Both the position numbers and the translations under genes were made by a program. A stretch of DNA of 64,000 nucleotides. Origin: a virus. Taxonomy: Duplodnaviria; Caudoviricetes. The notes under the pieces are model-generated. The model did no database searches. It was not told the DNA's origin and saw nothing but the letters and a program-made list of their open reading frames with translations. Of this stretch, positions 3,851 through 58,207 are shown in pieces (positions within the stretch are counted from its first letter, which is position 1; the number at the start of each line of letters is the position of its first letter). The DNA lies in IMG/VR virus record IMGVR_UViG_3300005077_000014, positions 21,375 to 85,374 of that record. The stretch is one strand, 5' to 3'.

Positions 3851-4210
3851 ATGGCTGATGCAGTTTCAGATTATGGTTTGTTGAGAGATGAAGCCTCGTT
3901 AGATGCGGGCGCTTCTGAAGAGATATCAATCATAGCTGCCGCTGGGCAGGACATAAGAGTATCAGAAGTCACGGCATCGATGGCCTTCGTTTTGATGGGC
4001 TTGGCTGTTCTAGTCTCAAACAGCAGCACCTTTGTTCCTGTTTCAGTAGGTTGTGATAGTGCAAGCGAGTCTTGGACTACTCTATACACTGTTCCTGAAG
4101 GCTACACTTTCATGGGAACGTTGAAATGTTTAAATGTCGGCTCGTCTTCTGGAACTTACTCATTCGGCGTGACTGTAACTGAAGTAGAAGGCGAATCTCC
4201 TGGAGCATAA
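3851..4210 (+). CDS. small beta-rich virion protein (putative)
   Basis: AGGAG RBS, 119 aa, located between fibre-like genes. Confidence 0.45.
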   Translation: MADAVSDYGLLRDEASLDAGASEEISIIAAAGQDIRVSEVTASMAFVLMGLAVLVSNSSTFVPVSVGCDSASESWTTLYTVPEGYTFMGTLKCLNVGSSSGTYSFGVTVTEVEGESPGA

Positions 4211-4249
4211 ACGTTTACAACTTCTCAAGCAAATGCTAGGTGAACTATC

Positions 4250-5524
4250 ATGATAATGGCAAGCTACGTTTCGACAACGACATTCAAGGTTTCAGGCGAT
4301 AAAACTCCCAACTACAAAAAGGGACAGAGAATAACGTGTATAATGACCTCGGGTAGCTGCGAGGCGACCGTAGTTTCTGCTGAAGTCGATGTAAATAATA
4401 CCGTCGTGACGATCACTCCAGACAGTGGGGCTTCGCTCAATGCCACGCTTTACAGGGTTACGCTCGGAAACACTTATTCAGACACAGACAATGAATCTGG
4501 AAACCTAGCAGAGCATGAGCATAAGAATCCGTGGAGCGGCAAATACATTCCGGCGGCGATGCTTTCAGAAGCAGAGAAAGACAATCTTCAGACGATTGAT
4601 ATTCCTGTTTCTGGAGATGCTGGCAAGCTGCTTGCTGTCGCTCCTACGTTTTCAAACGGATATCAATTGAAGACGCTTGCTGGAACGACAAACAGAATTA
4701 CAGTCACTATTACTGACGGCTTGATCACGCTCAACTTGCCACAGGATTTTCATACTGCTGCTTCGATTCAGCTTGCGCAATTGATTCTTTCTTCGCTGCT
4801 TGTCGGAACAGAACGAACGACTCCTGGAGATAATGCACCGACAGGCACCCGAAGATTTTACCCAAAAACAACGGGCTGGGTCGATCAAGATGACGCTGGG
4901 GTGGAGACTGCTTTCTCTATGGATGGGCATTCTCATGCTCACTCGGCAATAACAGGAAAAGACACTGACGGTCATCCAGCAAGCGTAATTGCTCCAGTGA
5001 CGACAAACTTTGACGGAATCTTGAGTTCGTCTGACGACACTGTTCAAAAGGCACTGGACACAATAGACGATTTCACACTGGCCGTTGCCGATTTATCTGA
5101 CTGGCCCACCGATGTCTCCACAACTGAGGTTGGGTATCTTAATGGAGTGACAGGCGCTATCCAAACACAAATTGGCGCAAAAGAGTCCAGTGACAGTCTC
5201 AAGCTGAAAAAAACCATTACAACACTGACAGATGCGGCCACAGTTACGCCTGACTTTTCAGCTTCAAACAATTTCACAATCACTCTTGGCGGCGACAGGA
5301 CATTCGCGAATCCAACTGGTGCATCTGCCGGCTACGATGGAATCATTTATTTTGTCCAGGGCACAGGCGGGAGTCACGAGCCGACATTTGAATATGCCTA
5401 TCGCTTTGTTGCCGCGCCTGTTTGGTCAACGGCTGAAGGCGCTGTTGATGCGATAAAATATTGGGTGCGAAGCGCCGACAATATTGTGTGTGAGTTTCTA
5501 AAGGGAATCGGGCTGACGAGTTAA
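4250..5524 (+). CDS. tail fibre-like virion protein
   Basis: Paralogous segments to 1874-3835; C-terminal TLTDAATVTPDF...ITLGGDRT...QGTGG domain shared with 6207-8270. Confidence 0.6.
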   Translation: MIMASYVSTTTFKVSGDKTPNYKKGQRITCIMTSGSCEATVVSAEVDVNNTVVTITPDSGASLNATLYRVTLGNTYSDTDNESGNLAEHEHKNPWSGKYIPAAMLSEAEKDNLQTIDIPVSGDAGKLLAVAPTFSNGYQLKTLAGTTNRITVTITDGLITLNLPQDFHTAASIQLAQLILSSLLVGTERTTPGDNAPTGTRRFYPKTTGWVDQDDAGVETAFSMDGHSHAHSAITGKDTDGHPASVIAPVTTNFDGILSSSDDTVQKALDTIDDFTLAVADLSDWPTDVSTTEVGYLNGVTGAIQTQIGAKESSDSLKLKKTITTLTDAATVTPDFSASNNFTITLGGDRTFANPTGASAGYDGIIYFVQGTGGSHEPTFEYAYRFVAAPVWSTAEGAVDAIKYWVRSADNIVCEFLKGIGLTS

Positions 5525-21173: not shown

Positions 21174-22100
21174 ATGTCTCAAACAATACCAGCACACATT
21201 AACTTAGAAGAGTTCGCAAGGCTGTCTCAAGAGCTAAGCGCTGAGGAGTTGGCAAAACGATATCAGCGAGGGGCCAGAACCATAAGATATTGGAAGGCTA
21301 TTCTAAAGAATCACACAAGCTTCACTGTGCAGGCCCCCCAAAAAGGCACCCTCGCTTTTCCAGAGCCACTTGGCAAAACCTATGACGATTATATCACAAT
21401 TGATGCGGACAGAGCGCTTATCCTGGGTGACGCTGAAATCCCGAATCACGACCCGGCAATATTCGACACAGCTTGCTCTATCGCCAAACAATTCAATATT
21501 GAGACATTAATTCTCAATGGGGATTTCGTGGCCCTGGATTGCTTTTCCACCTGGGCGCGAACAGCAGTCTATAAATTAGCTTTCGAGGAAGAGTTGGACG
21601 TTGCAGAAGAGGCTCTGAAAGTGTTTTTGCAACAATTCAAGCAAATAGTGTGGGTGACAGGAAATCATGAGCGCCGGCTGGCCTATCGCGTTGACGGCCA
21701 TATTACCATCGGCAAATTCCTTGAGAAATTCTCCAAAGGACTCACAATCTCTGAATATGCCTACTGTCTCTTGAATTCTGGCGGGAACACAATCATGGTT
21801 GTGCATCCAAAAAACTATAGCAGAATCCCGCTGTCAACTGCCAGAGAGCTTGCAGCTGTCAAGCTGACTTGTATCGTTGCTGGCCATAATCATCATCAGA
21901 GTTTCGGGTATGACCGAAGCGGCCAGCACTGGATTGTTGATGGGGGCTGTTGTCGTGACTCTTCAAAGACTCGATACAAGTCTGTTGAATGCTCGACACA
22001 TCCAGCCTGGAATGAAGGATTCACAATGATTATCGATGGTGAGCCCTACTTGATCAATAAACGAAACGCTGACTTCTGGAAAAAGGTAAAAATCGATTGA
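21174..22100 (+). CDS. calcineurin-like metallophosphoesterase with N-terminal HTH
   Basis: GDAE, LNGDF, GNHE, GHNH motifs; N-terminal LSAEELAKRYQRGARTIRYW. Confidence 0.8.
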   Translation: MSQTIPAHINLEEFARLSQELSAEELAKRYQRGARTIRYWKAILKNHTSFTVQAPQKGTLAFPEPLGKTYDDYITIDADRALILGDAEIPNHDPAIFDTACSIAKQFNIETLILNGDFVALDCFSTWARTAVYKLAFEEELDVAEEALKVFLQQFKQIVWVTGNHERRLAYRVDGHITIGKFLEKFSKGLTISEYAYCLLNSGGNTIMVVHPKNYSRIPLSTARELAAVKLTCIVAGHNHHQSFGYDRSGQHWIVDGGCCRDSSKTRYKSVECSTHPAWNEGFTMIIDGEPYLINKRNADFWKKVKID

Positions 22101-27245: not shown

Positions 27246-27671
27246 TCACTTCCCCCTCAATTTCGCCATGGCAAGTTCAAACAGAAGCCGGCCAGCATGT
27301 TCAGGCAAATCAGGGAACAGCCCCTTGAATTGAGCAATGATGCTGTTGCGTGCCGTCTCGTCACAAATCAACAACTCAAACGATTTACCGGCAAGCAACG
27401 ATTCCATTCTGTCAAGGTGCTCTGCCCTAATACCAAGCTTGTTCAAGACAACCCCAGCCTCCAACAAAATCCGACACAACCAATCGGGAACGTTAATCCC
27501 CCACATTCCAAGGTTTCGCAACACGTAGTCACGCCTTGCAGCCTCACTGCCAAGACTGTTTGCCGAATCAACAACCTGTATCACGTCTCCAATGCGGTCC
27601 ACGATTTCAGAAAGCAACCTCGGCAACATCCACCAAAACAAACGCATAACCATTGGCACAAACCAAGTCAT
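27246..27671 (-). CDS. hypothetical protein with internal duplication, possibly holin-like
   Basis: Two similar halves (AARRDYVL...PDWLCRILLEAGV / TARNSII...PEHAGRLLFELAM). Confidence 0.45.
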   Translation of the reverse strand: MTWFVPMVMRLFWWMLPRLLSEIVDRIGDVIQVVDSANSLGSEAARRDYVLRNLGMWGINVPDWLCRILLEAGVVLNKLGIRAEHLDRMESLLAGKSFELLICDETARNSIIAQFKGLFPDLPEHAGRLLFELAMAKLRGK

Positions 27672-27970
27672 CTTAATACCCCCAGACGCGGCAACACTCG
27701 ATCACAGATAGCAAGTCCGGGCAGAGGCCCCAGGGAAGGAATGTGAGACTGGCAATTTGCAGTAAGCGCCTGGACAGGATTGAAGTTGCAGTAAAGATCA
27801 GACTCGCTATCAATTAAAAAACGAGGCGCTATGAGGATCGTTGATTTCATGAGGTTGCCGCGAAAAGTAATGAAACAGCCAAGCTGTAAACAGCGAAACA
27901 GTAACCAGTCAAAACAACACAAGAAAGTTTCATTTGTTAACCAAAACGTCAAATCAATTGCTTGCAACCC

Positions 27971-27999
27971 CTTCTAATTTACCAAAAAGGTAAAGTCAA
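27971..27999 (-). promoter_or_regulatory. promoter for the leftward packaging operon with palindrome
   Basis: TTGACT-17 nt-TAGAAG on -, spacer holds TTTACC-N5-GGTAAA; near copy of the 5610 promoter. Confidence 0.5.
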
Positions 28000-28077
28000 G
28001 GACAAATTTTGTTGACAGGAAGCCGGTTTTATGGTTTGCCTGAAAACCGACAAACCAAACCTAAATCCTTCCTCATG

Positions 28078-29030: not shown

Positions 29031-29258
29031 ATGAACACACAGTTACCCCATAACCCTTTTACCGACGCCACTTTCACCCAAACGCAACAAGCGGCATACG
29101 CTCGTTATGTCCAGCTAATGAATCAGCGTCAACTCGGCATCACAACACCCGATGATGACTTTCACGACGACATGGCCCGCTGCTATTTCAGAGCCGCAGG
29201 AATACCCGACGAACTGAAAGAGAATGAAAAGTTTATGAGCTGGTGGAGGGAAGAATAG
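29031..29258 (+). CDS. small hypothetical protein
   Basis: 75 aa, GGAG RBS. Confidence 0.5.
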   Translation: MNTQLPHNPFTDATFTQTQQAAYARYVQLMNQRQLGITTPDDDFHDDMARCYFRAAGIPDELKENEKFMSWWREE

Positions 29259-29274
29259 AAAGAGGCGTGGAAAA

Positions 29275-29436
29275 ATGACAGCCAAAGAAATGGTCAAAAG
29301 AATACTCGCGCTTCCAGAAGAACAACAAAACCTTCCAGTGAAATACTATGATGAATATTACTGGAAAGATGTTGAGGCGATTTCTTTAGAAGACAAATGG
29401 GACGGCCACGAACCATTTATAGCAATAGACCGCTAA
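29275..29436 (+). CDS. small hypothetical protein (53 aa, not in ORF track)
   Basis: Hand-translated MTAKEMVKRILALPEEQQNLPV...; AGAGG RBS; fills the gap. Confidence 0.5.
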   Translation: MTAKEMVKRILALPEEQQNLPVKYYDEYYWKDVEAISLEDKWDGHEPFIAIDR

Positions 29437-29458
29437 CAACAGAAAGGAAGCGTCACCT

Positions 29459-30064
29459 ATGTCCATCACACATCCCCACATCTTCCAAATCCCATGGCAA
29501 TCGCTCGGCTCTGGCCGGCCAATCATTCCATATGCCCGCGTTTACATCGAGGCCATACTTGCGCTGAAAGGAAAAGAAAACCACAGCGACGACACCAACG
29601 CCATTGCCCCCATCCACATTCTCGAAATCGGCACATTCGACGGCTGCTCGGCCCGCATCATGTATGAGACACTTGACCGACACTTCTCATTCTTCAAACT
29701 AACACTCATTGAGCCAGAAATCAGAGAAGCGGCACTCGAACTCACCGACATGAAGCCATCCATTCAGTTCATCCAAGCTTACGCTGAAAACGTGGCGCAT
29801 CTCTTCCCAGACAACCATTTCGACCTGATGCACATCGACATGTCGCCCCACTCATTCGAGCAACATGTCACAGTCCACGACCTATACTGGCAGAAGCTCA
29901 AACCTAGACACTCCATGATTATCCACGATTACGACGCAACGTATGGCACATATCGATTCGTCAATGAAGTGCTCGGCAAAAGCAGCCAGTGGCACATCAT
30001 GCACATTGAGGCGAGACCTGAAAGCCCAACAACAAGGCCAGTGGTCGTGAGAAGGATGTATTAA
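29459..30064 (+). CDS. class I SAM methyltransferase (Methyltransf_24-like)
   Basis: LEIGTFDGCS, DLMHID, IIHDY motifs; resembles the N-domain of 15985-17352. Confidence 0.8.
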   Translation: MSITHPHIFQIPWQSLGSGRPIIPYARVYIEAILALKGKENHSDDTNAIAPIHILEIGTFDGCSARIMYETLDRHFSFFKLTLIEPEIREAALELTDMKPSIQFIQAYAENVAHLFPDNHFDLMHIDMSPHSFEQHVTVHDLYWQKLKPRHSMIIHDYDATYGTYRFVNEVLGKSSQWHIMHIEARPESPTTRPVVVRRMY

Positions 30065-49774: not shown

Positions 49775-50431
49775 TTAAAACGCTCTCACCGTCTTGCCGT
49801 CAGTTGTCGTTTGGTTTCCAGTGTGTTCTCCCCAAATGCCCTGGTAATCATCCACTTCGTCGGGTGTGATTTGCCGGAAAATCTTCTCAAACATGCCAAA
49901 CACTTCATCACTGATGAACAGCCCAAAGCTGGCCTGACAAAACTTGAATCCGCGCTGCATCTTTATGAAACCGTCTTCAGCGGTAATGTGAAATTCTCCG
50001 GTAAGCGTGCCTTTGAATCCCGGCGCAATGCGGGCCATCGACAAATCTCCCTGGGCCTTGAACTCAGATGTGCGCGGATCCAAAAAAGCACAAAGGAACA
50101 ATGGCATCGTGACGGTTTCTAGCGAAACGAGCTTGTAAGAGATTCCAGGGCGCAACAGCCAAGTCTCTGGCGTTCCAACCTCGCAAAGTGGCGCAAAGCT
50201 CAATGTGCCAGCCGGTGGAATCATTCGGTCATCTTTCCCGAGAAAAGGGATGTCTCGTGATTTTCTTTGAACCTCGATGGACTCCAGCGTGAACTCAAAA
50301 ACAGACCCCTCTAGTCGCTGGACACGTTTAACCAAATCGTCAATCTGAGCATCTGTCCCACCCACAACGTCAATCAGTGGCGGGTTATGGTCCAATATCA
50401 AGCGGCGAATTGTGCGTGCTGTGAGAAACAT
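49775..50431 (-). CDS. dCTP deaminase / trimeric dUTPase family protein
   Basis: SLETVTMP, PRTSEFK, IAPGFKGTLTGE, FCQASF motifs. Confidence 0.75.
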   Translation of the reverse strand: MFLTARTIRRLILDHNPPLIDVVGGTDAQIDDLVKRVQRLEGSVFEFTLESIEVQRKSRDIPFLGKDDRMIPPAGTLSFAPLCEVGTPETWLLRPGISYKLVSLETVTMPLFLCAFLDPRTSEFKAQGDLSMARIAPGFKGTLTGEFHITAEDGFIKMQRGFKFCQASFGLFISDEVFGMFEKIFRQITPDEVDDYQGIWGEHTGNQTTTDGKTVRAF

Positions 50432-50468
50432 GTGATATCTCTTTCGTTAGTGGTGTGTTGTCGTCTCG

Positions 50469-50642
50469 TTATTCGTGTTCAGCTTCAGCCAAGCCTCGCT
50501 CATATCCTTCAGAGTCGGCATCAGCCATGCATCGATCACAGGGTTCAATTTTCAAGTATCCTGTTGAGCTTTTGCGGGAGACTGTTAGTTCGTCTCCACA
50601 CTCATCACAAATCACAGTTACATCGACCAATATTTCAGCCAT
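50469..50642 (-). CDS. small zinc-ribbon protein (57 aa, not in ORF track)
   Basis: Hand-translated MAEILVDVTVICDECG...PCDRC. Confidence 0.5.
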   Translation of the reverse strand: MAEILVDVTVICDECGDELTVSRKSSTGYLKIEPCDRCMADADSEGYERGLAEAEHE

Positions 50643-50685
50643 CAGGATTATTCCTTTCTTTGTGGAGTTTTTCGTAAATATATTT

Positions 50686-51111
50686 TCAATCCCTCAGTGA
50701 GAAACTGCATTCGCTGTCTTCGCAAAGCGTCCTGGACAAGTCCCATTCAAGAAGTTCGTCAATCGACTCGAAGACGGGAAGGCCAAGCTCGCTTGCGATT
50801 TCAAGCTCTTTTTTAGTTCCCTTGGATGTCTCCCAGCCTGGAACAAGCAAAACGCAATCGGAGACCTTGAGCCAAGCGATAGAGTATGCGTAATATTCCT
50901 CAAGCGTTGTTTCGCCAATCAAAGAGAAAAGGTAATCCAGCCAAGGCGCAAACGGCGCAAATCCATGTTTCAATACCTGGTGCGACACCCTTAACCCTCG
51001 TCTCATGTTGTCCAAAATGGTAATCACGTCAGGCCCAGAATACGGACCAGCCACATAAACCCGAACCATGTCGGTCGTGTCTTCTGTTGTAGTCAGGCTA
51101 TTCTCTTTCAA
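50686..51111 (-). CDS. DUF4406-like / nucleoside deoxyribosyltransferase-like protein
   Basis: VYVAGPYSG...SDCVLLVPGWETSKGTKKELEIA..LGLPVF. Confidence 0.75.
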   Translation of the reverse strand: MKENSLTTTEDTTDMVRVYVAGPYSGPDVITILDNMRRGLRVSHQVLKHGFAPFAPWLDYLFSLIGETTLEEYYAYSIAWLKVSDCVLLVPGWETSKGTKKELEIASELGLPVFESIDELLEWDLSRTLCEDSECSFSLRD

Positions 51112-53423
51112 AATAACGTCTCCTGTGATGCGTTTTTCTCTGCTTCGCGCAGATTTTTGACGGCCATATTGAAATAGCTCGGTTTGAGTTCGCCTCCAAT
51201 GAACTGGCGATTAAATTTCAAAGAAACGACGCCTTCGCTTCCTATCCCGGCGAAAGGTGAATAAACAATGTCTCCAGGGTTTGACCAGAGTTTGACGCAT
51301 CGCTCGATGACTGATAACTGCAAAGGGCACAAGTGGCGCTCGTCTTGTTCGTCGCGAGCACATGCCACATTGAGCACATCACTCTCTCTGATTCCATCTG
51401 GATTGTCTTCTGAGTGCATGAGCCAAACAGGAGAAGCCCATTTAATCCATTCGACGTTGCTTATCCAGCCACCTGATGCGCCTTTGATGTGGTCTGCTTT
51501 GCCAGCTCGGATGGGCTCTGGGTTGTCTCCTGGTTTGCGAAATTGCAAAACGTAATCGGCCATGGCCATGCGAGATTTCGATGAATCAGTGGCAAGCGTC
51601 TTGAAAAGTAAGCCTTGGTCTTTGGTTCGGAGAGCTTTTAATTGCGGATTCTTTTCAATACAGACTTCTCCATAATAAATCCATCCTGCGTCTTCCATTA
51701 TCTCGATGACTTTTCCTCGAAAGTCTTTCAGTCCGACATAGCCATCAATACCCTTGAATGCGATACCTTGTGTCAGGTGGACAGCACAGATACGACCCAG
51801 CTTAGTGACTCGTAACAGGTCCGGGACTAGAAAGCGGTAGTGGTCAAGCATTTCGTCAAAGTTTTTCGTGTTTCCCATGTCGTGGGGGCTGTTAGAATAA
51901 CTATACATGCCTGGAAATGGAGGACTATATACAATCAACCCCACACTTTCATCCTCGATATTCTTAACCGTCTTGACCGAATCCCCTAGATACAGCGTCC
52001 AGCCCTTGCCATCGGCCACGCTTTCCACGTATTCCATTTCTTCTCGTTTAGCTTCAACGGTTTGAAACTCTTTCATGTGATTCAGCATCTCCTTAAACAT
52101 TTGGTCTGCCTGTTGCTCTTTGCGTTTGATGTTTGCGATTACGGAGCCTTCGGCCTCGGAAGTGATAATGTGGACATGAACCTCGTGTTTTTGACCGAAT
52201 CGCCAACAGCGGCGAATTGCTTGGTAGAAATATTCAAAGGAATGGCTTAGGCCAAGAAAGATAACGTTGTGACATGATTGGAAATTCATCCCATGGCCAC
52301 AGATTGAACTTTTGCTAACGAGCGTCTTGATTTCCCCATTGGCGAAGCCAATCATGCTCGATTCTTTATGCTCTGGCGAGTCACTTCCTTTGACTTCAAC
52401 TGCTCCATCGATTGCTTTTGTTGCGGCGGCACTTTCGTCATTCAGGTCGCACCACACAAGCCATTGGTCGTGTGAAGTATCGTTATTGATAAGGTCTGCG
52501 CAGAGCTTTACACGGTCAACTAAACTGCTTCGTCTGGCCTCTCTTTGCTCTTGCAATCCCTTTGCCTCAAGTGTGAACAGCATCCCGTTGTCAAACAGCT
52601 GATTGTCTGTGACATGGTGGTGCATGTGCATGGCCGGCAAAATGAAATCATGGTCATCAAACCCAAGGTCAGATGGGAGCCTGAAGGCACGAGCCCATGA
52701 CGCCAGCCATTTCCAGAAATCTTTTTGAGCGTGGCCCTTGAGTCTCCACTTGTGCGATGTGGCCTTGAAATCTTGAATGAAGAAAATGGCGAGGATTTCT
52801 TTACCCTGCATAACGCCAAGAAACTCAGCGTGATTTATCAGTTCAGACGTGTCATTTGGCGACGGCGTGGCCGTGCAAGCAAGACGATACGGTATTGTTT
52901 GGGCGAAGGATGTTAAGGCAATACGGGTTTTTGCGCCAATTCCCTTTAAAATTGAACTTTCATCAAGCACTATGCCACTCAGCCCCTTCGCCTCAAAATG
53001 ATGCAGCATCTCGTAATTGGCGATATTGACTCCAGGCTGAATGTCGGCTTGTTTGCGGCAAATGTGGACATTAACGCCAAACTTCTTTCCCTCTTCTCTC
53101 GTCTGTTTCGAGACTGCCAGTGGCGCAAATATCAGGACGGGTTGACCTGTGTGGCGTGTAACATGGTCGGCCCATGTGAGCTGCATAAAAGTTTTTCCCG
53201 TTCCGGTGTCTCCAAATATTGCGGCCCTTCCTCGTTTCAACGCCCAACGGACAATGACTCTCTGGAAATCGAACAGAAGCGGGTTGATTGAGTCGATATC
53301 CACGTCAAAGCCAGTGTCTATGTCAACGATTCGCTTGGACTGAATGAAATCGGTATAAGACTTTGCGTGGTCTGTGGTCGTGGTCGTTTCGTTATTTATG
53401 TTAGTGTTGGTGCTTGTTTTCAT
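51108..53423 (-). CDS. SNF2-like helicase fused to N4C/N6A DNA methyltransferase
   Basis: GDTGTGKT, LDESS, CGHGMNFQ, QAIRRCWRFGQ; then YSPPF and YSPFAGIGSEG. Confidence 0.9.
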   Translation of the reverse strand: MKTSTNTNINNETTTTTDHAKSYTDFIQSKRIVDIDTGFDVDIDSINPLLFDFQRVIVRWALKRGRAAIFGDTGTGKTFMQLTWADHVTRHTGQPVLIFAPLAVSKQTREEGKKFGVNVHICRKQADIQPGVNIANYEMLHHFEAKGLSGIVLDESSILKGIGAKTRIALTSFAQTIPYRLACTATPSPNDTSELINHAEFLGVMQGKEILAIFFIQDFKATSHKWRLKGHAQKDFWKWLASWARAFRLPSDLGFDDHDFILPAMHMHHHVTDNQLFDNGMLFTLEAKGLQEQREARRSSLVDRVKLCADLINNDTSHDQWLVWCDLNDESAAATKAIDGAVEVKGSDSPEHKESSMIGFANGEIKTLVSKSSICGHGMNFQSCHNVIFLGLSHSFEYFYQAIRRCWRFGQKHEVHVHIITSEAEGSVIANIKRKEQQADQMFKEMLNHMKEFQTVEAKREEMEYVESVADGKGWTLYLGDSVKTVKNIEDESVGLIVYSPPFPGMYSYSNSPHDMGNTKNFDEMLDHYRFLVPDLLRVTKLGRICAVHLTQGIAFKGIDGYVGLKDFRGKVIEIMEDAGWIYYGEVCIEKNPQLKALRTKDQGLLFKTLATDSSKSRMAMADYVLQFRKPGDNPEPIRAGKADHIKGASGGWISNVEWIKWASPVWLMHSEDNPDGIRESDVLNVACARDEQDERHLCPLQLSVIERCVKLWSNPGDIVYSPFAGIGSEGVVSLKFNRQFIGGELKPSYFNMAVKNLREAEKNASQETLF

Positions 53424-53820
53424 TGCTCTCACTCTTATTTTTCCTGTCTTTGCCTTTAACCTTCTCGCTATTCTCTTCAACTCCTGGCGCAACATACGTT
53501 TTCGGGTTGCACTGCTTCATGATTTGACTGAGCTTTTCTTTGCCCATGCGCTCTTCAGCGAAATCGACAATGAATGCGATTGAGTCCACCATGCGTTGAG
53601 CTTCCTCACGACTCACCTTTGACCCGTCAGCAGTTGCAATCCAAATGTCGAACCTGTGCCTCAGCCAAGCGTAATATGGCCCATCAAGGCGACGATAAGT
53701 GATGCCGTCGCGGGTTATGTCACGAGCAAGAGACGGGTGCCGCAACATGAAGAAATGGTGGAGCGACGTGGACACGTAGAGACAATCGGGGTGCATATTT
53801 TGTTGAGTCGATGTTGTCAT
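53401..53820 (-). CDS. hypothetical protein downstream of the pentamer arrays
   Basis: Up to 139 aa; YRRLDGPYYAWLRHR; true start uncertain. Confidence 0.5.
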   Translation of the reverse strand: MTTSTQQNMHPDCLYVSTSLHHFFMLRHPSLARDITRDGITYRRLDGPYYAWLRHRFDIWIATADGSKVSREEAQRMVDSIAFIVDFAEERMGKEKLSQIMKQCNPKTYVAPGVEENSEKVKGKDRKNKSESNENKHQH

Positions 53821-54138
53821 GTCGTGTCTCGTCCCGTCGCGTCTTGTCTTGTCTCGTCCCGTCGGGTCGCGTCACATCAAATATCACTGTTACTTGTTTA
53901 ACTGTCTAAAAATGCCTTTATGTATTTTTGTCATGTCTTGTTCGGTCGAGTCTTGTCTTGTTCAGTCTTGTCAGGTCATGTCCCGTCGGGTCAAGTCTCG
54001 TCGCGTATCATCATCCAAGAATGCCATTATGTATTCTTGTCATGTCTCGTCTGGTCTTGTCGCGTCTCGTCAAGTCCTGTCTCGGCCAGTCATGTCAAGT
54101 CAGGTTGAGTCCCGTCTCGTCGAATCTCGTCATGTCTC
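53816..54138 (-). ncRNA. pentamer-coded RNA array block A (3 tracts: 53816-53880, 53930-54004, 54039-54138)
   Basis: (NN-GAC)n on - strand, 13/15/20 units, separated by AAGAATACATAA.GGCATTCTT-type hairpin linkers. Confidence 0.8.
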
Positions 54139-54146
54139 AATCAACT

Positions 54147-54734
54147 TCATTCTTTATCACTCTTATTCTTCTTAAACGCTTCCAACGTCTTCATCCACGG
54201 CAGCTTGTTTGCTGTTTCTGTGACTGTTGTCTCGATGCGATCTATCTGTTTTTTGCTTCCGATTTGGCGAATTGCGCCAAGGATGCTAAGGCCGACGTTG
54301 TGTTTGATTTGGCTGTCTGCGGGTAGGTCTTGAAAGCTTTTTACAGCCATCATTTCGTTTGCTGCTCGGGTGGCTTTTCTTCTGATTGCACGTATTGCGG
54401 GCTGTCCAAGCTCGGTTTTTTCTTTGTCGGTGAGACACTTAAGCCCTTTGTCGGGGTGCTCTGCTGTGGGCTTGAAAACGAGCTGATGTGTCTTGAGCGC
54501 TCGCTTTCTGGCTGCGTCCAGGCAATGACGGGCATCTTCCTGAACGTTTCGGGCAAGCATTTTGTTCAGCGTTGCATACGGGATAAACGCTCCAGGCGCT
54601 TGCGTTATTAGATACTCATATAAAATTTGAGTATCAATCGAGTGCTGAAAGAGATTGCGTTTGTCGGTGGTCTGCTCAGAGTCAGTGCGAGCTAGGCTCT
54701 CAATTGCTTTTTGTCTCTGTTCTTCTGGCGTCAT
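54147..54734 (-). CDS. array-embedded accessory protein, possible winged helix
   Basis: 195 aa between blocks A and B, AGGAG RBS; helix-strand-HTH-wing-like N-half, basic C-half. Confidence 0.65.
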   Translation of the reverse strand: MTPEEQRQKAIESLARTDSEQTTDKRNLFQHSIDTQILYEYLITQAPGAFIPYATLNKMLARNVQEDARHCLDAARKRALKTHQLVFKPTAEHPDKGLKCLTDKEKTELGQPAIRAIRRKATRAANEMMAVKSFQDLPADSQIKHNVGLSILGAIRQIGSKKQIDRIETTVTETANKLPWMKTLEAFKKNKSDKE

Positions 54735-54758
54735 GGTCGTCTCCTGTAGTGGTAAGTT

Positions 54759-55124
54759 GTCGGGTCATGTCCCGTCTTGTCCAGTCTGGTCATGTTCAGT
54801 CGAGTCGCGTCGAGTATCACTGTTGTTTGTCTAACCGTCTCAATATACCGTTGTGTTATGTATTCTTGCCTTGTCACGTCTTGTTCTGTCATGTTGTGTC
54901 CCGTCATGTCCCGTCCCGTCACGTATCATCATCTAAGAATGCCATTATGTATTCTTGTCTTGTCTTGTCTTGTCGAGTCATGTAGCGTCGGGTCCAGTCT
55001 CGTCTCGTCTTGTCAGGTATCATTGTTGAATATGCCTTTATGTATTCTTGTCTTGTCTTGTCTTGTCGGGTCATGTCCCGTCTTGTCCAGTCTCGTCATG
55101 TTCAGTCGAGTCGCGTCGAGTATC
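54759..55124 (-). ncRNA. pentamer-coded RNA array block B (4 tracts: 54759-54813, 54868-54922, 54957-55016, 55050-55119)
   Basis: 11/11/12/14 NN-GAC units; each tract opens with GATAC and three end in the hairpin linker. Confidence 0.85.
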
Positions 55125-55136
55125 ACTAATTTCTTC

Positions 55137-55700
55137 CTACTCTTCTGTCCATTGTATATCTTGGAGTGAGAAGCGCCCGAAATAGCCTCGGTTTCTCACT
55201 CTTAACGCTCCGATTCCGATGAATTTTCCAGCGGCGACGATATGTTCTTCAAAGACGCTGGGCGTGAGAATTTCGTCAACCACGAAGTATGTTACGGTTC
55301 CTTCCCATTGCTGGATGACGGGGAAGCATTTTGAGACTCTTTTGCCGTCTCCAGGGACGCCAGATGCCGGGACAAGCAACCACATGCCTTCCAGGTCGTC
55401 TTTGAGTTGCGGGAGCACAATGCCTTCCATGCAGAAAAAACCAGCCTCAAAATGTTTCGTGTAGGTAGATTTCCCTTTGCCGGGTATCTGCTTACCCATG
55501 AATTTTGCTGCTTCCATGACGGTATTTCTCAAAGCCATTGGTGGGATTGTGACTCTTCCATCCGGCAGAGAATGAAACTTCTCTTTCCAGGTCCGCTTCT
55601 CATAATCTTCAGCAATCTCTCTCTCAAGTTTCGGCGTTTGATGATAACGGCCCCAAGATAAAGGGCTGTCACTCTTCAGGGTTACTCTTGCTACTTTCAT
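55137..55700 (-). CDS. stand-alone Cas7/RAMP-like RNA-binding protein (Vipr-like)
   Basis: RAMP hallmarks: beta1 RVTLKSDSPL, IPPMALRNTVMEAA, thumb-like LVPASGVPGDGKRVSKCFP, WEGTVTY, glycine loop AGKFIGIGALR...GYFGRF. Confidence 0.75.
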   Translation of the reverse strand: MKVARVTLKSDSPLSWGRYHQTPKLEREIAEDYEKRTWKEKFHSLPDGRVTIPPMALRNTVMEAAKFMGKQIPGKGKSTYTKHFEAGFFCMEGIVLPQLKDDLEGMWLLVPASGVPGDGKRVSKCFPVIQQWEGTVTYFVVDEILTPSVFEEHIVAAGKFIGIGALRVRNRGYFGRFSLQDIQWTEE

Positions 55701-55743
55701 GATTCATCTTCCTTTCTTGTGTTGTGTTGTTTTGAATTGGGTT

Positions 55744-55972
55744 GTCTTGTCTCGTCTAGTCTCGTCCTGTCTCGTCTAGTCTCGTCCTGTCTCGTCTAGT
55801 CTCGTCCTGTCACGTCATGTCCAGTCAAGTCTAGTCCAGTCGGGGCTAGTCAAGTATCATCGTTATTCGACTAAGTATCTCAAGATGCCATTATATATTC
55901 TCGTCTTGTCGCGTCTGGTCCCGTCCCGTCTGGTCTTGTCTCGTTGTGTCTCGTCGGGTCAGGTCGCGTCAC
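55744..55972 (-). ncRNA. pentamer-coded RNA array block C (2 tracts: 55744-55853, 55903-55972)
   Basis: 22 and 14 NN-GAC units with a variant hairpin linker, between the RecD2 stop and the RAMP gene RBS. Confidence 0.8.
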
Positions 55973-55990
55973 GCGTTAGCCTATTTGTCC

Positions 55991-58207
55991 CTACTCTCTC
56001 TTAATCAGCTCACTGAACCACGTTTTTCTCTTATCCACTTCCGTTTTACTGACGCAATTCCGGATTCCCCATGAATCGCCTAGCACAATGATTTTTTTCA
56101 TTGCCCGTGTTGCGCCGGTGTAAAAGATGCCTCTGTGGTGCATGAATGAGTGGTTTTTGTGGAGACAGAGCATAACGAAGGGGTATTGGCTGCCTTGTGT
56201 TTTGTGAACCGTCAGGCAGTATGCCAGTTCGATATTGATTCGTTTCTTTGTTGGTATGGCCGTGATTTCTTCGTAGTCTTCAAACTGGACAAGTAGAGTG
56301 CCGTTGTCTTCAATTGCGACAATCTCGCCAAGGGTGCCGTTCATGACATCGACTTCGTAATCGTTGTGGACTTGAATGATTTTGTCGTGGGGATAGAGCT
56401 TTGGCCGTTTCCCTTCTGGTGTGTCTTCGATGTCTACTCCCCATTTGACTCTTTGGGTGATTTTCTGAAGCGCAATGTTCAACGCATCGCAACCGAGAAT
56501 TCCTTTGCGTTGTGGCGATAGGATTTGAATGCCGGTGATAATGTTGGCGTTTGACCAGTTGACAAGAATTTGCTCATAGCCATTACATATTTCTTGTTTG
56601 CATTTTAGGGGGTCTGTCAGGTTGCTAACAACTTGCCACGGGATGTTGCCGTTTTCGGGCTTGCTTGTCTTTTCGAGTTTGCCTTCTAAAATTGCGCTGC
56701 AATTAGCTTTTAAAACGCCAGCTTGACGAACGATAGTGTCAAGGACTGTTGTTGGCACCACGTTTGATGCGATAAGGTCTCGTAACAGCGAGCCGGGGCC
56801 AACAGGTGGCAATTGATTATGGTCTCCGATAATTAAAACGCTGGTTGTGTCCCAATTAATGGCCCTGAAAAGATGATATGCGAGCAGATTATCAACCATT
56901 GAGAATTCGTCAATGATGACTAAATCACAAACTAACGGCTCGTATTCGTTGCGCTGAAAGCCGAATTGTGGGTTGTATTCAAGTAGTCTGTGAATAGTCT
57001 TTGCGTCATGGTTGGTTGTTTGTGCGAGTCTTCGAGCAGCTTTCCCTGTGGGAGCACACAAAGCAATGTTTTTGCCTATACCTTCCAAGTAATCAATGAT
57101 GCCCTTGACTAGATGTGTCTTGCCCGTTCCGGCGGCTCCAGTTGTGACCGAGACTTTGTATTTCAGCGCATTGTCAGTGGCGTTGCGCTGGTGTTCATTG
57201 AGAGAAGCCTGTCTCGGGGTGAGGGAGTCTTTATCGTTCCAATCAATAGGACTCGCTATGTGGCTTTGCTTCTTTGCAGCAAATGTCAAATTATCAGCTA
57301 GAAATCTTTCGATTCTTTCAATATGGGGCTCCATGATGACGGCAACACCAGCACTCGTCTTCCTTCCAACCAGGAATCCATCACCGATTAACAGGCCAAT
57401 TTTCTCTTCAATCTTCTGTTTGCTGTCCAGCCGGTCGAGACCCAGTAACCCATTTGCTTTTCTGATTAGCTCGCTTATTTCGATATACGTGCTTCCATCG
57501 TTGAGCACGTCTCGAACGCACCAGAGAATCCCTTGAGTGATTCTGCCCTCGTGGTCTTTCTTGATGCCCATCTTGAGCGCTATTTCATCGGCTTTCTTGA
57601 ATTGAACTCGTGGCACTTTGCCGATGATTTGATAGGGGTCTGATTGCAGGACGCCAAGGGTTGACTCGCCATATTCTTCGATTAGCTTGTCTATTTCGTT
57701 GATTGACAGGCCGAATTTAGCGAGCCACGTTATGAGCTTTGTATGATTGCGATGGTCTTTCCAGGTGGAAACGAGCAGAGCGAGTTGGTCGTCTGTGATA
57801 TTGACAAGAGCTTGAATCTTCTCCGGCTCTTTCATGATTACGTCATCAAAAGACGTGCCGAAAGCGTCAGCAATCTTTCTGGCTTTGCTTCTCCCTATCC
57901 CTTTAATCATCGTGTTTTTATCGAGCCAAACGGCGAGCCCTTCAGTGTCAAGTGTTTGGTCGTATTCACATGTGGCGGCCTGAAACTGCGTTCCATATTT
58001 CGGGTCTTTTGTCCATCGGCCCGTCATAATGACTCTGGCACCCTGGACAAGCATCACTGGCGCAGAGAATGAAACGAGTTGCACTCTGTCCTGAGACTCT
58101 AGTTTGCCAGCCGAAAACGTCGGGTAAGCGCAATGGAGACGTTCAACGGTTCCGCGGATAGTGTCGGCCATAATGTCGGCTTGTTTTTTAGTGGCTCGTT
58201 TGGTCAT
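55991..58207 (-). CDS. recD2: RecD2-like SF1B helicase
   Basis: N-terminal OB/HhH region (GIGRSKARKI), GAAGTGKT, IDEFSM, GDHNQLPPVGPG, AYCLTVHKTQGSQY, YTGATRA. Confidence 0.9.
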   Translation of the reverse strand: MTKRATKKQADIMADTIRGTVERLHCAYPTFSAGKLESQDRVQLVSFSAPVMLVQGARVIMTGRWTKDPKYGTQFQAATCEYDQTLDTEGLAVWLDKNTMIKGIGRSKARKIADAFGTSFDDVIMKEPEKIQALVNITDDQLALLVSTWKDHRNHTKLITWLAKFGLSINEIDKLIEEYGESTLGVLQSDPYQIIGKVPRVQFKKADEIALKMGIKKDHEGRITQGILWCVRDVLNDGSTYIEISELIRKANGLLGLDRLDSKQKIEEKIGLLIGDGFLVGRKTSAGVAVIMEPHIERIERFLADNLTFAAKKQSHIASPIDWNDKDSLTPRQASLNEHQRNATDNALKYKVSVTTGAAGTGKTHLVKGIIDYLEGIGKNIALCAPTGKAARRLAQTTNHDAKTIHRLLEYNPQFGFQRNEYEPLVCDLVIIDEFSMVDNLLAYHLFRAINWDTTSVLIIGDHNQLPPVGPGSLLRDLIASNVVPTTVLDTIVRQAGVLKANCSAILEGKLEKTSKPENGNIPWQVVSNLTDPLKCKQEICNGYEQILVNWSNANIITGIQILSPQRKGILGCDALNIALQKITQRVKWGVDIEDTPEGKRPKLYPHDKIIQVHNDYEVDVMNGTLGEIVAIEDNGTLLVQFEDYEEITAIPTKKRINIELAYCLTVHKTQGSQYPFVMLCLHKNHSFMHHRGIFYTGATRAMKKIIVLGDSWGIRNCVSKTEVDKRKTWFSELIKRE

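Follow-up and report, generated by a model that had tools for sequence, protein, structure and literature searches.

VIPR, a CRISPR-like (clustered regularly interspaced short palindromic repeats) silencer of DNA that is guided by RNA, was first described in 2026 (10.64898/2026.04.26.720920; 10.64898/2026.04.26.720927). According to these reports, the system comprises a lone RAMP protein carried by the phage, together with an accessory gene and vrRNAs of 9-16 units, each of which is a fixed triplet followed by two variable bases (NN); an invariable structured 3' tail comes after the tract of units and caps the RNA, and a one-base-skip code is used for the reading of targets. The consensus tail shared by vrRNAs was reported to be what makes them competent for the Vipr complex (10.64898/2026.10.15.759431). 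In October 2026, non-canonical arrays of the types GAC/NN, CAC/NN, and WGT/NN were found beside Vipr-like folds by means of entropy periodicity (10.64898/2026.10.21.760802). Experimental work on VIPR covers two GGY-type clades, and the separation of guides in multi-guide arrays is known only for arrays that contain ribozymes.

In the present study, we analyzed a stretch of 64,000 nucleotides (nt) from a virus of the class Caudoviricetes (IMG/VR record IMGVR_UViG_3300005077_000014, positions 21,375 to 85,374; hereafter the window, the numbering of which is used throughout). Three intergenic regions at 53816-55972, flanked by co-directional minus-strand genes, hold nine phased tracts that read GTC-NN on the plus strand and consist of 10-22 units each (T1 to T9), and six linkers (L1 to L6) lie between tracts (Table 1), as had been counted in a preliminary description of this DNA. 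We consider it likely that the locus is a phage VIPR system made up of a vipr gene, an accessory gene, nine vrRNA tracts, and constant linkers. The linkers are the constant pieces between the guides of a GAC-type VIPR array, and the hairpin that they can form is weak and not clearly under selection. The observations comprise the fold and homology of the protein, the anatomy of the tracts, the conservation of the linkers, and the evidence on the strand.

Regarding the protein, the product of the vipr-like gene, which has 187 amino acids (aa), is, as judged from sequence profiles and a predicted structure, a remote homolog of the Vipr protein of phage SUSP1 with a Cas7-like fold. Its AlphaFold2 (AF2) model had a predicted local distance difference test score (pLDDT) of 91.5, and the best Foldseek matches of this model were type VII and type III Cas7/Csm3 proteins (E 3e-7, probability 1.0). 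The family profile was aligned with SUSP1 Vipr by HHalign (96.6%, E 6e-10, 150 columns), and a direct BLASTP comparison gave E 5e-4 over the loop rich in glycine (G-loop), the counterpart, in the alignment, of the SUSP1 loop by which the fixed triplet is read. No match to the 187-aa protein was obtained in a sequence search of the PDB or by tblastn against 50,697 phage records. The protein has more than 1100 relatives, and dozens of viral contigs have a member of its gene family beside period-5 tracts; when IMG/VR was scanned for eight GTC-NN units, more than 120 stretches were obtained, many of which flank a gene like the 187-aa open reading frame (ORF).

A TRAP-like RNA-binding array, a T7-type primase-site array or replication origin, and a Rep-binding element were each considered as identities of the locus, and were dropped because of the Cas7-like protein and the VIPR literature. 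The recognition triplet of T7 primase is GTC, and TRAP binds triplets that are two bases apart; these two points, and the position of the locus in the replication and recombination module of the phage, speak for such identities. We nevertheless regard it as extremely improbable that the locus is not RNA-guided and serves as a DNA element, e.g., a replication origin, a row of T7-type primase sites (5'-GTC-3'), or an array for a TRAP-like ring protein. A strict 5-nt phase with hypervariable NN is unnecessary for primase sites, the arrays travel with a Vipr-homologous Cas7-like protein across unrelated phage backgrounds, and the triplet differs by clade while the architecture remains constant.

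The tracts themselves are sharply delimited. In runs of at least four units, GTC accounted for 95 units in total, GAC on the plus strand for 0, and any other triplet for 15 at most, and a count over the whole 85-kb genome placed all GTC runs in the 53816-55972 region. The 5-nt phase is strict, the NN dinucleotides vary across the nine tracts, and degenerate in-phase units (GTT, GGC, ATC, and GTA on the plus strand) are rare. In the sense of the genes, the triplet is GAC, with the variants AAC, GCC, GAU, and UAC. AAC is the commonest of these variants, and the variant units of SUSP1 mostly alter the first base (AGT, TGT).

SUSP1 carries a type II VIPR (Vipr YP_009199429.1, vap1, and four vrRNAs), with which the present locus has several features in common: a single Cas7-like protein of ~190 aa that is carried by the phage and ends in a C-terminal G-loop; units of 5 nt in the gene sense, each a fixed triplet plus NN; tracts on both sides of vipr; a constant sequence directly 3' of the tract; a small accessory gene after vipr; and the lack of self-targets. 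Residues D177 and W178 of the SUSP1 G-loop are replaced by A and L in this phage, and the SUSP1 tail of ~40 nt combines a hairpin, a pseudoknot, and a U-run and is followed by a leader of ~35 nt, whereas the linkers here measure 33-59 nt and have a conserved core of 16 nt together with, at most, a weak stem of 6 bp. Unlike in SUSP1, three tracts have no tail, and the nine tracts are arranged in three blocks interleaved with three genes. At the end of the SUSP1 vrRNA tails (locus L145, minus strand, 27480-28040 and 29050-29520), a short hairpin precedes a U-run, and this end appears from its sequence to be terminator-like. The arrays surveyed in October 2026 (10.64898/2026.10.21.760802) are similar to the present one in having a fixed GAC, a variable NN, about ten or more units, and a position beside a Vipr-like fold; the accessible part of that report covers the repeat pattern and the neighboring fold, and does not deal with tails, linkers, strand evidence, processing, or this phage.

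The preliminary description likened the linkers to the repeats of a CRISPR array. As in class 1 CRISPR-Cas, a constant element punctuates variable guides, and a Cas7-family protein would form a coat at a fixed number of bases per subunit. The likeness does not extend further: a repeat-spacer array, cas1/cas2, and Cas6 are all absent, the guides do not copy a target contiguously, and the constant element forms no stable hairpin. Neither cas adaptation genes nor Cas6 were found among the scanned neighboring proteins, and the would-be spacers are period-5 fixed-triplet tracts. The absence of Cas6 had been stated correctly, the only RAMP being the 187-aa Vipr-like protein.

Searches with the guides did not reveal a target. 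Matches to the phage's own genome did not exceed those of shuffled guides, and exact 1-nt-skip patterns of 10-12 units from five guides (T4/T7, T9, T1, and T2) had no match in IMG/VR. The single GTDB match of the T4/T7 pattern, in a GMC oxidoreductase, was rejected; it is out of codon register, and about 2 such matches are expected by chance. The T4 and T7 guides are almost the same, differing in one dinucleotide, and have the same 5' flank, which represents a segmental duplication inside the array.

Since GAC and GUC are reverse complements, the strand of the RNA cannot be read from the motif by itself. The tracts lie within an operon of minus-strand genes with no terminator between the genes; therefore, minus-strand tract RNA would be made whenever the operon is transcribed. 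Plus-strand tract RNA would need promoters of its own, and none was predicted, which favors the minus strand: a scan for sigma-70 promoters found 3 sites against 3.1 expected, none of which was on the plus strand, and a scan for intrinsic terminators found 4 against 3.9 expected, with no enrichment. In SUSP1, the GGT-NN units and tails lie on the vipr strand. Among loci with GTC tracts and a vipr homolog, the vipr strand reads GAC in 28 of 31. In 80 gene-oriented relatives (loci L148-L227), the Vipr proteins of which are 48-62% identical within one family, the gene-sense triplet is GGC, CGC, GAC, CTC, GTT, or GTC depending on the clade, so that the few loci with gene-sense GTC represent a different triplet clade and not a flipped array. 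Relatives also carry gene-sense terminators directly after their arrays.

The ends of the tracts and the G-loop bear on the same question. On the minus strand, eight of the nine tracts end in GAC-AA and the ninth (T9) ends in GACAA GACGA, while only one ends in AA on the plus strand. NN is AA in the last unit of 71 of 122 distinct tracts of relatives, compared with about 5% for the first unit and 15% for internal ones, and this last unit serves as a polarity marker of array ends in relatives. The GGC, CGC, GTC, and GTT clades have an invariant G-loop motif, GIG-R-F-RPR, whereas its Arg is replaced by F, S, V, or A in seven of nine GAC-type proteins, in counts that ignore shared ancestry; the present protein reads GIGALRVR (residues about 161-168), with AL in place of RF. 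GTC-type proteins keep this Arg and GAC-type proteins are mostly without it, so that the two types do not appear to read one triplet from opposite strands. The minus (gene-sense) strand is, thus, the favored reading of the tract RNA on sequence grounds, and is also the strand on which the preliminary description had read the linkers. The Arg site aligns with D177/W178 of SUSP1 and is a candidate determinant of the fixed triplet. In one locus (L200), a GAG-NN tract (2778-2822) lies upstream of vipr and CTC-NN tracts (4090-5285) lie downstream, i.e., two orientations of one triplet occur on one strand.

The alternative is that the guides are antisense GUC-NN RNAs from the plus strand, with a tail of the form GUAUCA...AAGAAUGC-CAUUAU-GUAUUCUU that folds into an 8-bp hairpin. 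In L2 and L4, this hairpin has energies of -6.0 to -6.1 kcal/mol and z-scores of -3.1 to -3.2, and L1 and L5 form it as well; on the plus strand, seven or eight of the nine tracts have (G)TATCA after them; and one clade of the same family has gene-sense GUC-NN tracts with terminators (loci L040/L203 and L206). However, an antisense promoter would be needed for each tract, and promoter-like sites are not enriched; the family-wide 3' signature of NN=AA lies on the minus strand in eight of the nine tracts, compared with one on the plus strand; the proteins of the GTC clade keep the G-loop Arg that is lost in the GAC clade; SUSP1 vrRNAs are gene-sense; and the first plus-strand tract of each region would begin inside a gene or at its start codon. 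We regard an antisense origin of the guides as very unlikely.

Concerning the linkers, the order on the minus strand is the last unit GAC-AA, a 16-nt block GAAUACAUAAWGGCAU (Block A), a variable stretch, and a leader that ends in RUGAUAC and abuts the next tract. Block A follows six of the nine tracts. The 18-mer ATGCCWTTATRTATTCTT, allowing up to 3 mismatches, has 5 matches, all in linkers, compared with 0.12 expected and a maximum of 2 in 100 shuffles, and it is kept in five linkers although the flanking guides are unrelated. As described previously, L2 and L4 are near-identical copies of 34 nt with one mismatch, and the two long linkers L1 and L3 have a module in common, AGACRGTTARACAANNAACAGTGATA (26 nt). 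A division into short and long linkers also stands, with sizes of 33-34 and 49-59 nt replacing those given earlier. Linker lengths of 34, 54, 59, 34, and 49 nt equal 4 modulo 5, and L5 has 33 nt; therefore, the 5-nt register is broken at every linker. The long linkers exceed the short one by 15, 20, or 25 nt, as would be the case if they contained repeat units that have decayed.

Block A was not found elsewhere in the phage, and searches beyond it were negative. The exact 18-mer had 20 matches in IMG/VR, all attributable to chance and none beside tracts, and the pattern of the tail-tract junction had 2 chance matches in JGI metagenomes and 0 in GTDB genomes. A covariance model built from the six linkers (R1) recovered no sequence of the window other than these six, a search with it of 1.58 Mb of related loci yielded no credible match, and Rfam, at E up to 1, gave no family, no ribozyme, and no CRISPR match in 53000-56500.

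The linkers had originally been interpreted as conserved hairpins with a compensatory base change that act as processing signals. The sequences on which this was based are indeed present: on the minus strand, L2 and L4 read AAGAAT-ACATAATGGC-ATTCTT, L1 reads AAAAAT-ACATAAAGGC-ATTTTT, and L5 contains GAATA/TATTC in a shifted register. The left arm consists of the AA of the last unit and GAAU, the loop is ACAUAAWGGC (ACAUAAUGGC), and the right arm is AUUCUU. If the 6-bp AAGAAU/AUUCUU hairpin itself were functional, it would be a stem-loop handle or a processing signal similar to the hairpin of a Cas6 repeat. The stem can form in four of the six linkers (L1, L2, L4, and, shifted, L5, which retains five pairs despite a different right arm), and is lost in L3 and L6. 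Its 6 bp include one G-C pair, and the energy is -2.4 kcal/mol at best (L2 and L4; z-scores of -0.2 to -0.6 against shuffles), -0.8 in L5, and near zero in L1; it is part of the minimum-energy folds of L2, L4, and L5 only and is absent from those of L1, L3, and L6, and the z-scores of the minus-strand linkers against dinucleotide shuffles range between -0.8 and +0.9. Thus, a sequence able to form a hairpin exists, but as a structure it is weak and no better than shuffles.

The same holds for its conservation. In a fixed register, in which L3, L5, and L6 are each short of two of the six pairs, 83% of cells pair as against 26-56% with a slid partner, which speaks for the hairpin in a control that is biased toward a structure read off the same six sequences. 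Covariation across the six linkers was not above that with shuffled partners (338-362 of 500 shuffles reached the observed values), and RNAalifold predicted no consensus pair. At the pair described as compensatory, three linkers have G-U, two have G-C, and one has A-U, a series that is permitted on minus-strand RNA only and in this respect agrees with a stem; however, with G-U intermediates, single steps suffice and no double change is needed. The proposal of a conserved, covarying hairpin as the processing signal is not supported by these statistics. Conservation covers the left arm, the entire loop, and the first two bases of the right arm, beyond which the right arm varies (UCUU, AUUC, UUUU, CUUG, and AUUG). 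Such lopsided conservation, in which the loop is kept better than the right arm, fits a sequence element and does not fit a helix. The outer two pairs, moreover, use the AA of the last unit, which would be expected to be held by Vipr. The conserved feature looks like a sequence block and not like pairing, and the 6-bp stem may form. Inspection of the linkers by eye did not reveal pairing between leader and tail or a pseudoknot between the loop and downstream sequence.

The linkers of relatives are clade-specific and range from unstructured stretches of 18 nt to hairpins of -27 kcal/mol. Thirteen of 31 distinct ones fold at -8 kcal/mol or better, many in a terminator-like form, and the gene-sense strand is the more stable in 16 cases and the opposite strand in 6. 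These strong hairpins in about 40% of relatives' linkers and the structured tails of the SUSP1 clade count in favor of a functional hairpin. Another 13 of the 31 are essentially unstructured, including those of 18-25 nt and that of a GAC-type relative (locus L209), the tracts of which end GACAT GACAA|GAAC, much as in this phage, before an 18-nt linker without structure. Since the linkers of many relatives are unstructured, a hairpin is no general requirement of this protein family. Overall, we consider a functional role for the hairpin itself to be possible, but rather unlikely.

Block A may also be viewed as DNA, with CATAAT/TATAAT as a -10 promoter element for each guide and the inverted repeat as an operator for the accessory protein. 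Its loop reads CATAAT (L2 and L4) or TATAAT (L6) on the minus strand, one sigma-70-like site matching 9 of 12 positions was called at L4, the 6-bp arms placed 10 bp apart resemble the operator of a dimer, and the neighboring 195-aa protein is weakly MarR/SarA-like. On the other hand, the -10 element is without its final T in L1, L5, and L3, there is no TG extension and no conserved -35 element, and the number of promoter-like sites given above is that expected. Block A occurs nowhere else in the phage, being confined to the linkers, and, thus, is not a general phage promoter. Furthermore, an operator does not need a symmetric change in both arms, and the winged-helix assignment is weak (E 0.03 or worse). 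A role of the linker at the DNA level is, therefore, one to which we give little credence.

Several points weigh against the identification of the locus as a VIPR system with gene-sense guides and constant tails. The canonical GGY triplet of SUSP1 is not present, GAC being the gene-sense triplet; however, "a related consensus" is provided for in the VIPR papers and GAC/NN arrays have been described, and GAC is, thus, a variant and no ground for exclusion. A pseudoknot tail of the SUSP1 type is not present, and there is no terminator in the linkers. Block A is absent after T1, T4, and T8. The accessory protein is unrelated in sequence to SUSP1 vap1, with no similarity in BLASTP. The plus-strand RNA has the stronger hairpin (8 bp with G-U, -6.1 kcal/mol, z -3.2), which fits an antisense RNA. 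Relatives' linkers vary so widely that a tail role is not transferable from them. Lastly, the expression of vrRNAs in this phage, their strand, and their ends are what we infer from the sequence.

With VIPR as the likely identity, a mechanism may be outlined by analogy with SUSP1. The tracts would be part of the minus-strand transcripts of the genes, in which they read (GAC-NN)n, Vipr subunits would coat each tract at one subunit per five bases, and the linker tail would mark and cap the 3' end of each filament. The tail would break the 5-nt register, and we propose that each guide forms its own particle for this reason. The uncoated A/U-rich linker would be the only place for host RNases to separate the guides. 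Binding or capping of the tail and cutting within the linker are, thus, suggested by the analogy, in which the earlier idea of a constant 3' handle on the guides would be right in kind, while its hairpin specifics would not.

Two features that may go beyond this outline are absent from the published descriptions of VIPR: (1) an unstructured 16-nt tail that is recognized by its sequence and (2) tail-less tracts that act as Vipr-binding leaders. We put both forward as speculative, and they are probably not correct. If (1) is true, a sequence-read A/U-rich block defines the ends of guides in a polycistronic array inside an mRNA operon, and maturation differs from that of the terminator-plus-pseudoknot tails of SUSP1 and of ribozyme-interspersed arrays; it could consist of capping by Vipr and then trimming by host RNases. 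If (2) is true, T1, T4, and T8 are not ordinary guides and link the loading of guides to feedback on the translation of the genes of the system itself. Each of these tracts lies just upstream of a gene and ends in GAC-AA, followed by a ribosome-binding region or a start codon, and 22 of 72 distinct relatives have a tract that ends within 70 nt of the vipr start. T1, T4, and T8 end 0, 24, and 43 nt, respectively, before the start codon of the next gene, and the ATG of the 139-aa ORF is formed by the T1 units GACAT GACAA.

The locus leaves the picture of what VIPR is unchanged. As a compact example of the GAC type, it combines nine guides with a short linker that has hardly any structure, and contrasts guides with and without a tail; it is, thus, suited to three questions, namely, the minimal needs of a tail, the strand and ends that are used, and the G-loop residues that set the triplet.

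Table 1. Tracts, linkers, and genes of the GAC-NN locus (window positions; tracts are given as gene-sense GAC-NN units)
Feature	Position	Strand	Size	Remarks
T9	55903..55972	-	14 units	Ends GACAA GACGA
L6	55854..55902	-	49 nt	Block A variant GAGAAUAUAUAAUGGCAU; right arm shortened, up to 4 pairs including one G-U
T8	55744..55853	-	22 units	Ends GACAA GACAA before vipr; no Block A tail
vipr-like gene	55137..55700	-	187 aa	RAMP/Cas7-like; C-terminal glycine-rich loop GIGALRVRNRGYFGRF
T7	55050..55119	-	14 units	Begins 17 nt past vipr stop
L5	55017..55049	-	33 nt	Block A; shifted 5-bp GAAUA/UAUUC (55028-55032 with 55043-55047)
T6	54957..55016	-	12 units	
L4	54923..54956	-	34 nt	Arms 54935-54940 and 54951-54956
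T5	54873..54922	-	10 units	
L3	54814..54872	-	59 nt	Block A shifted by extra unit GGCAA and diverged (GAAUACAUAAC...GGUAU); 26-nt module
T4	54759..54813	-	11 units	GACAA end before 195-aa gene; no Block A tail
Candidate vipr-accessory gene	54147..54734	-	195 aa	Possibly a winged-helix DNA binder
T3	54039..54138	-	20 units	
L2	54005..54038	-	34 nt	Arms 54017-54022 and 54033-54038
T2	53930..54004	-	15 units	
L1	53876..53929	-	54 nt	AAAAAU/AUUUUU stem (53908-53913 with 53924-53929); 26-nt module common to L3
T1	53816..53875	-	12 units	Runs into ATG of 139-aa ORF; no Block A tail
139-aa ORF	53401..53820	-	139 aa	Start codon inside last units of T1

Regarding the neighboring genes, the 195-aa protein is 37% identical (E 2e-27) to the product of a gene that adjoins vipr in another locus (L143), and its homologs adjoin vipr in at least 66 loci according to a local tblastn search; a word-based homolog search returned only the protein itself. 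Its AF2 model (pLDDT 89.5) had weak MarR/SarA-like fold matches (E 0.03-0.2), and the predicted structure, thus, weakly resembles winged-helix regulators. No relatives, no family, and no usable atlas match were found for the 139-aa ORF.

The carrier, an 85-kb single-contig virus record, has genes for portal, tail, and primase/helicase proteins. At 49775-53495, just downstream of the array, it encodes a 795-aa helicase fused to an N6/N4 DNA methylase and contains a nucleoside 2-deoxyribosyltransferase-like gene and a dCTP-deaminase-like gene, which together hint at DNA modification in this phage. Within T8, a 20-nt unit of four pentamers is repeated 3.7 times at 55744-55816 with 96% identity, which may reflect slippage or a guide against a target with a 12-nt period.

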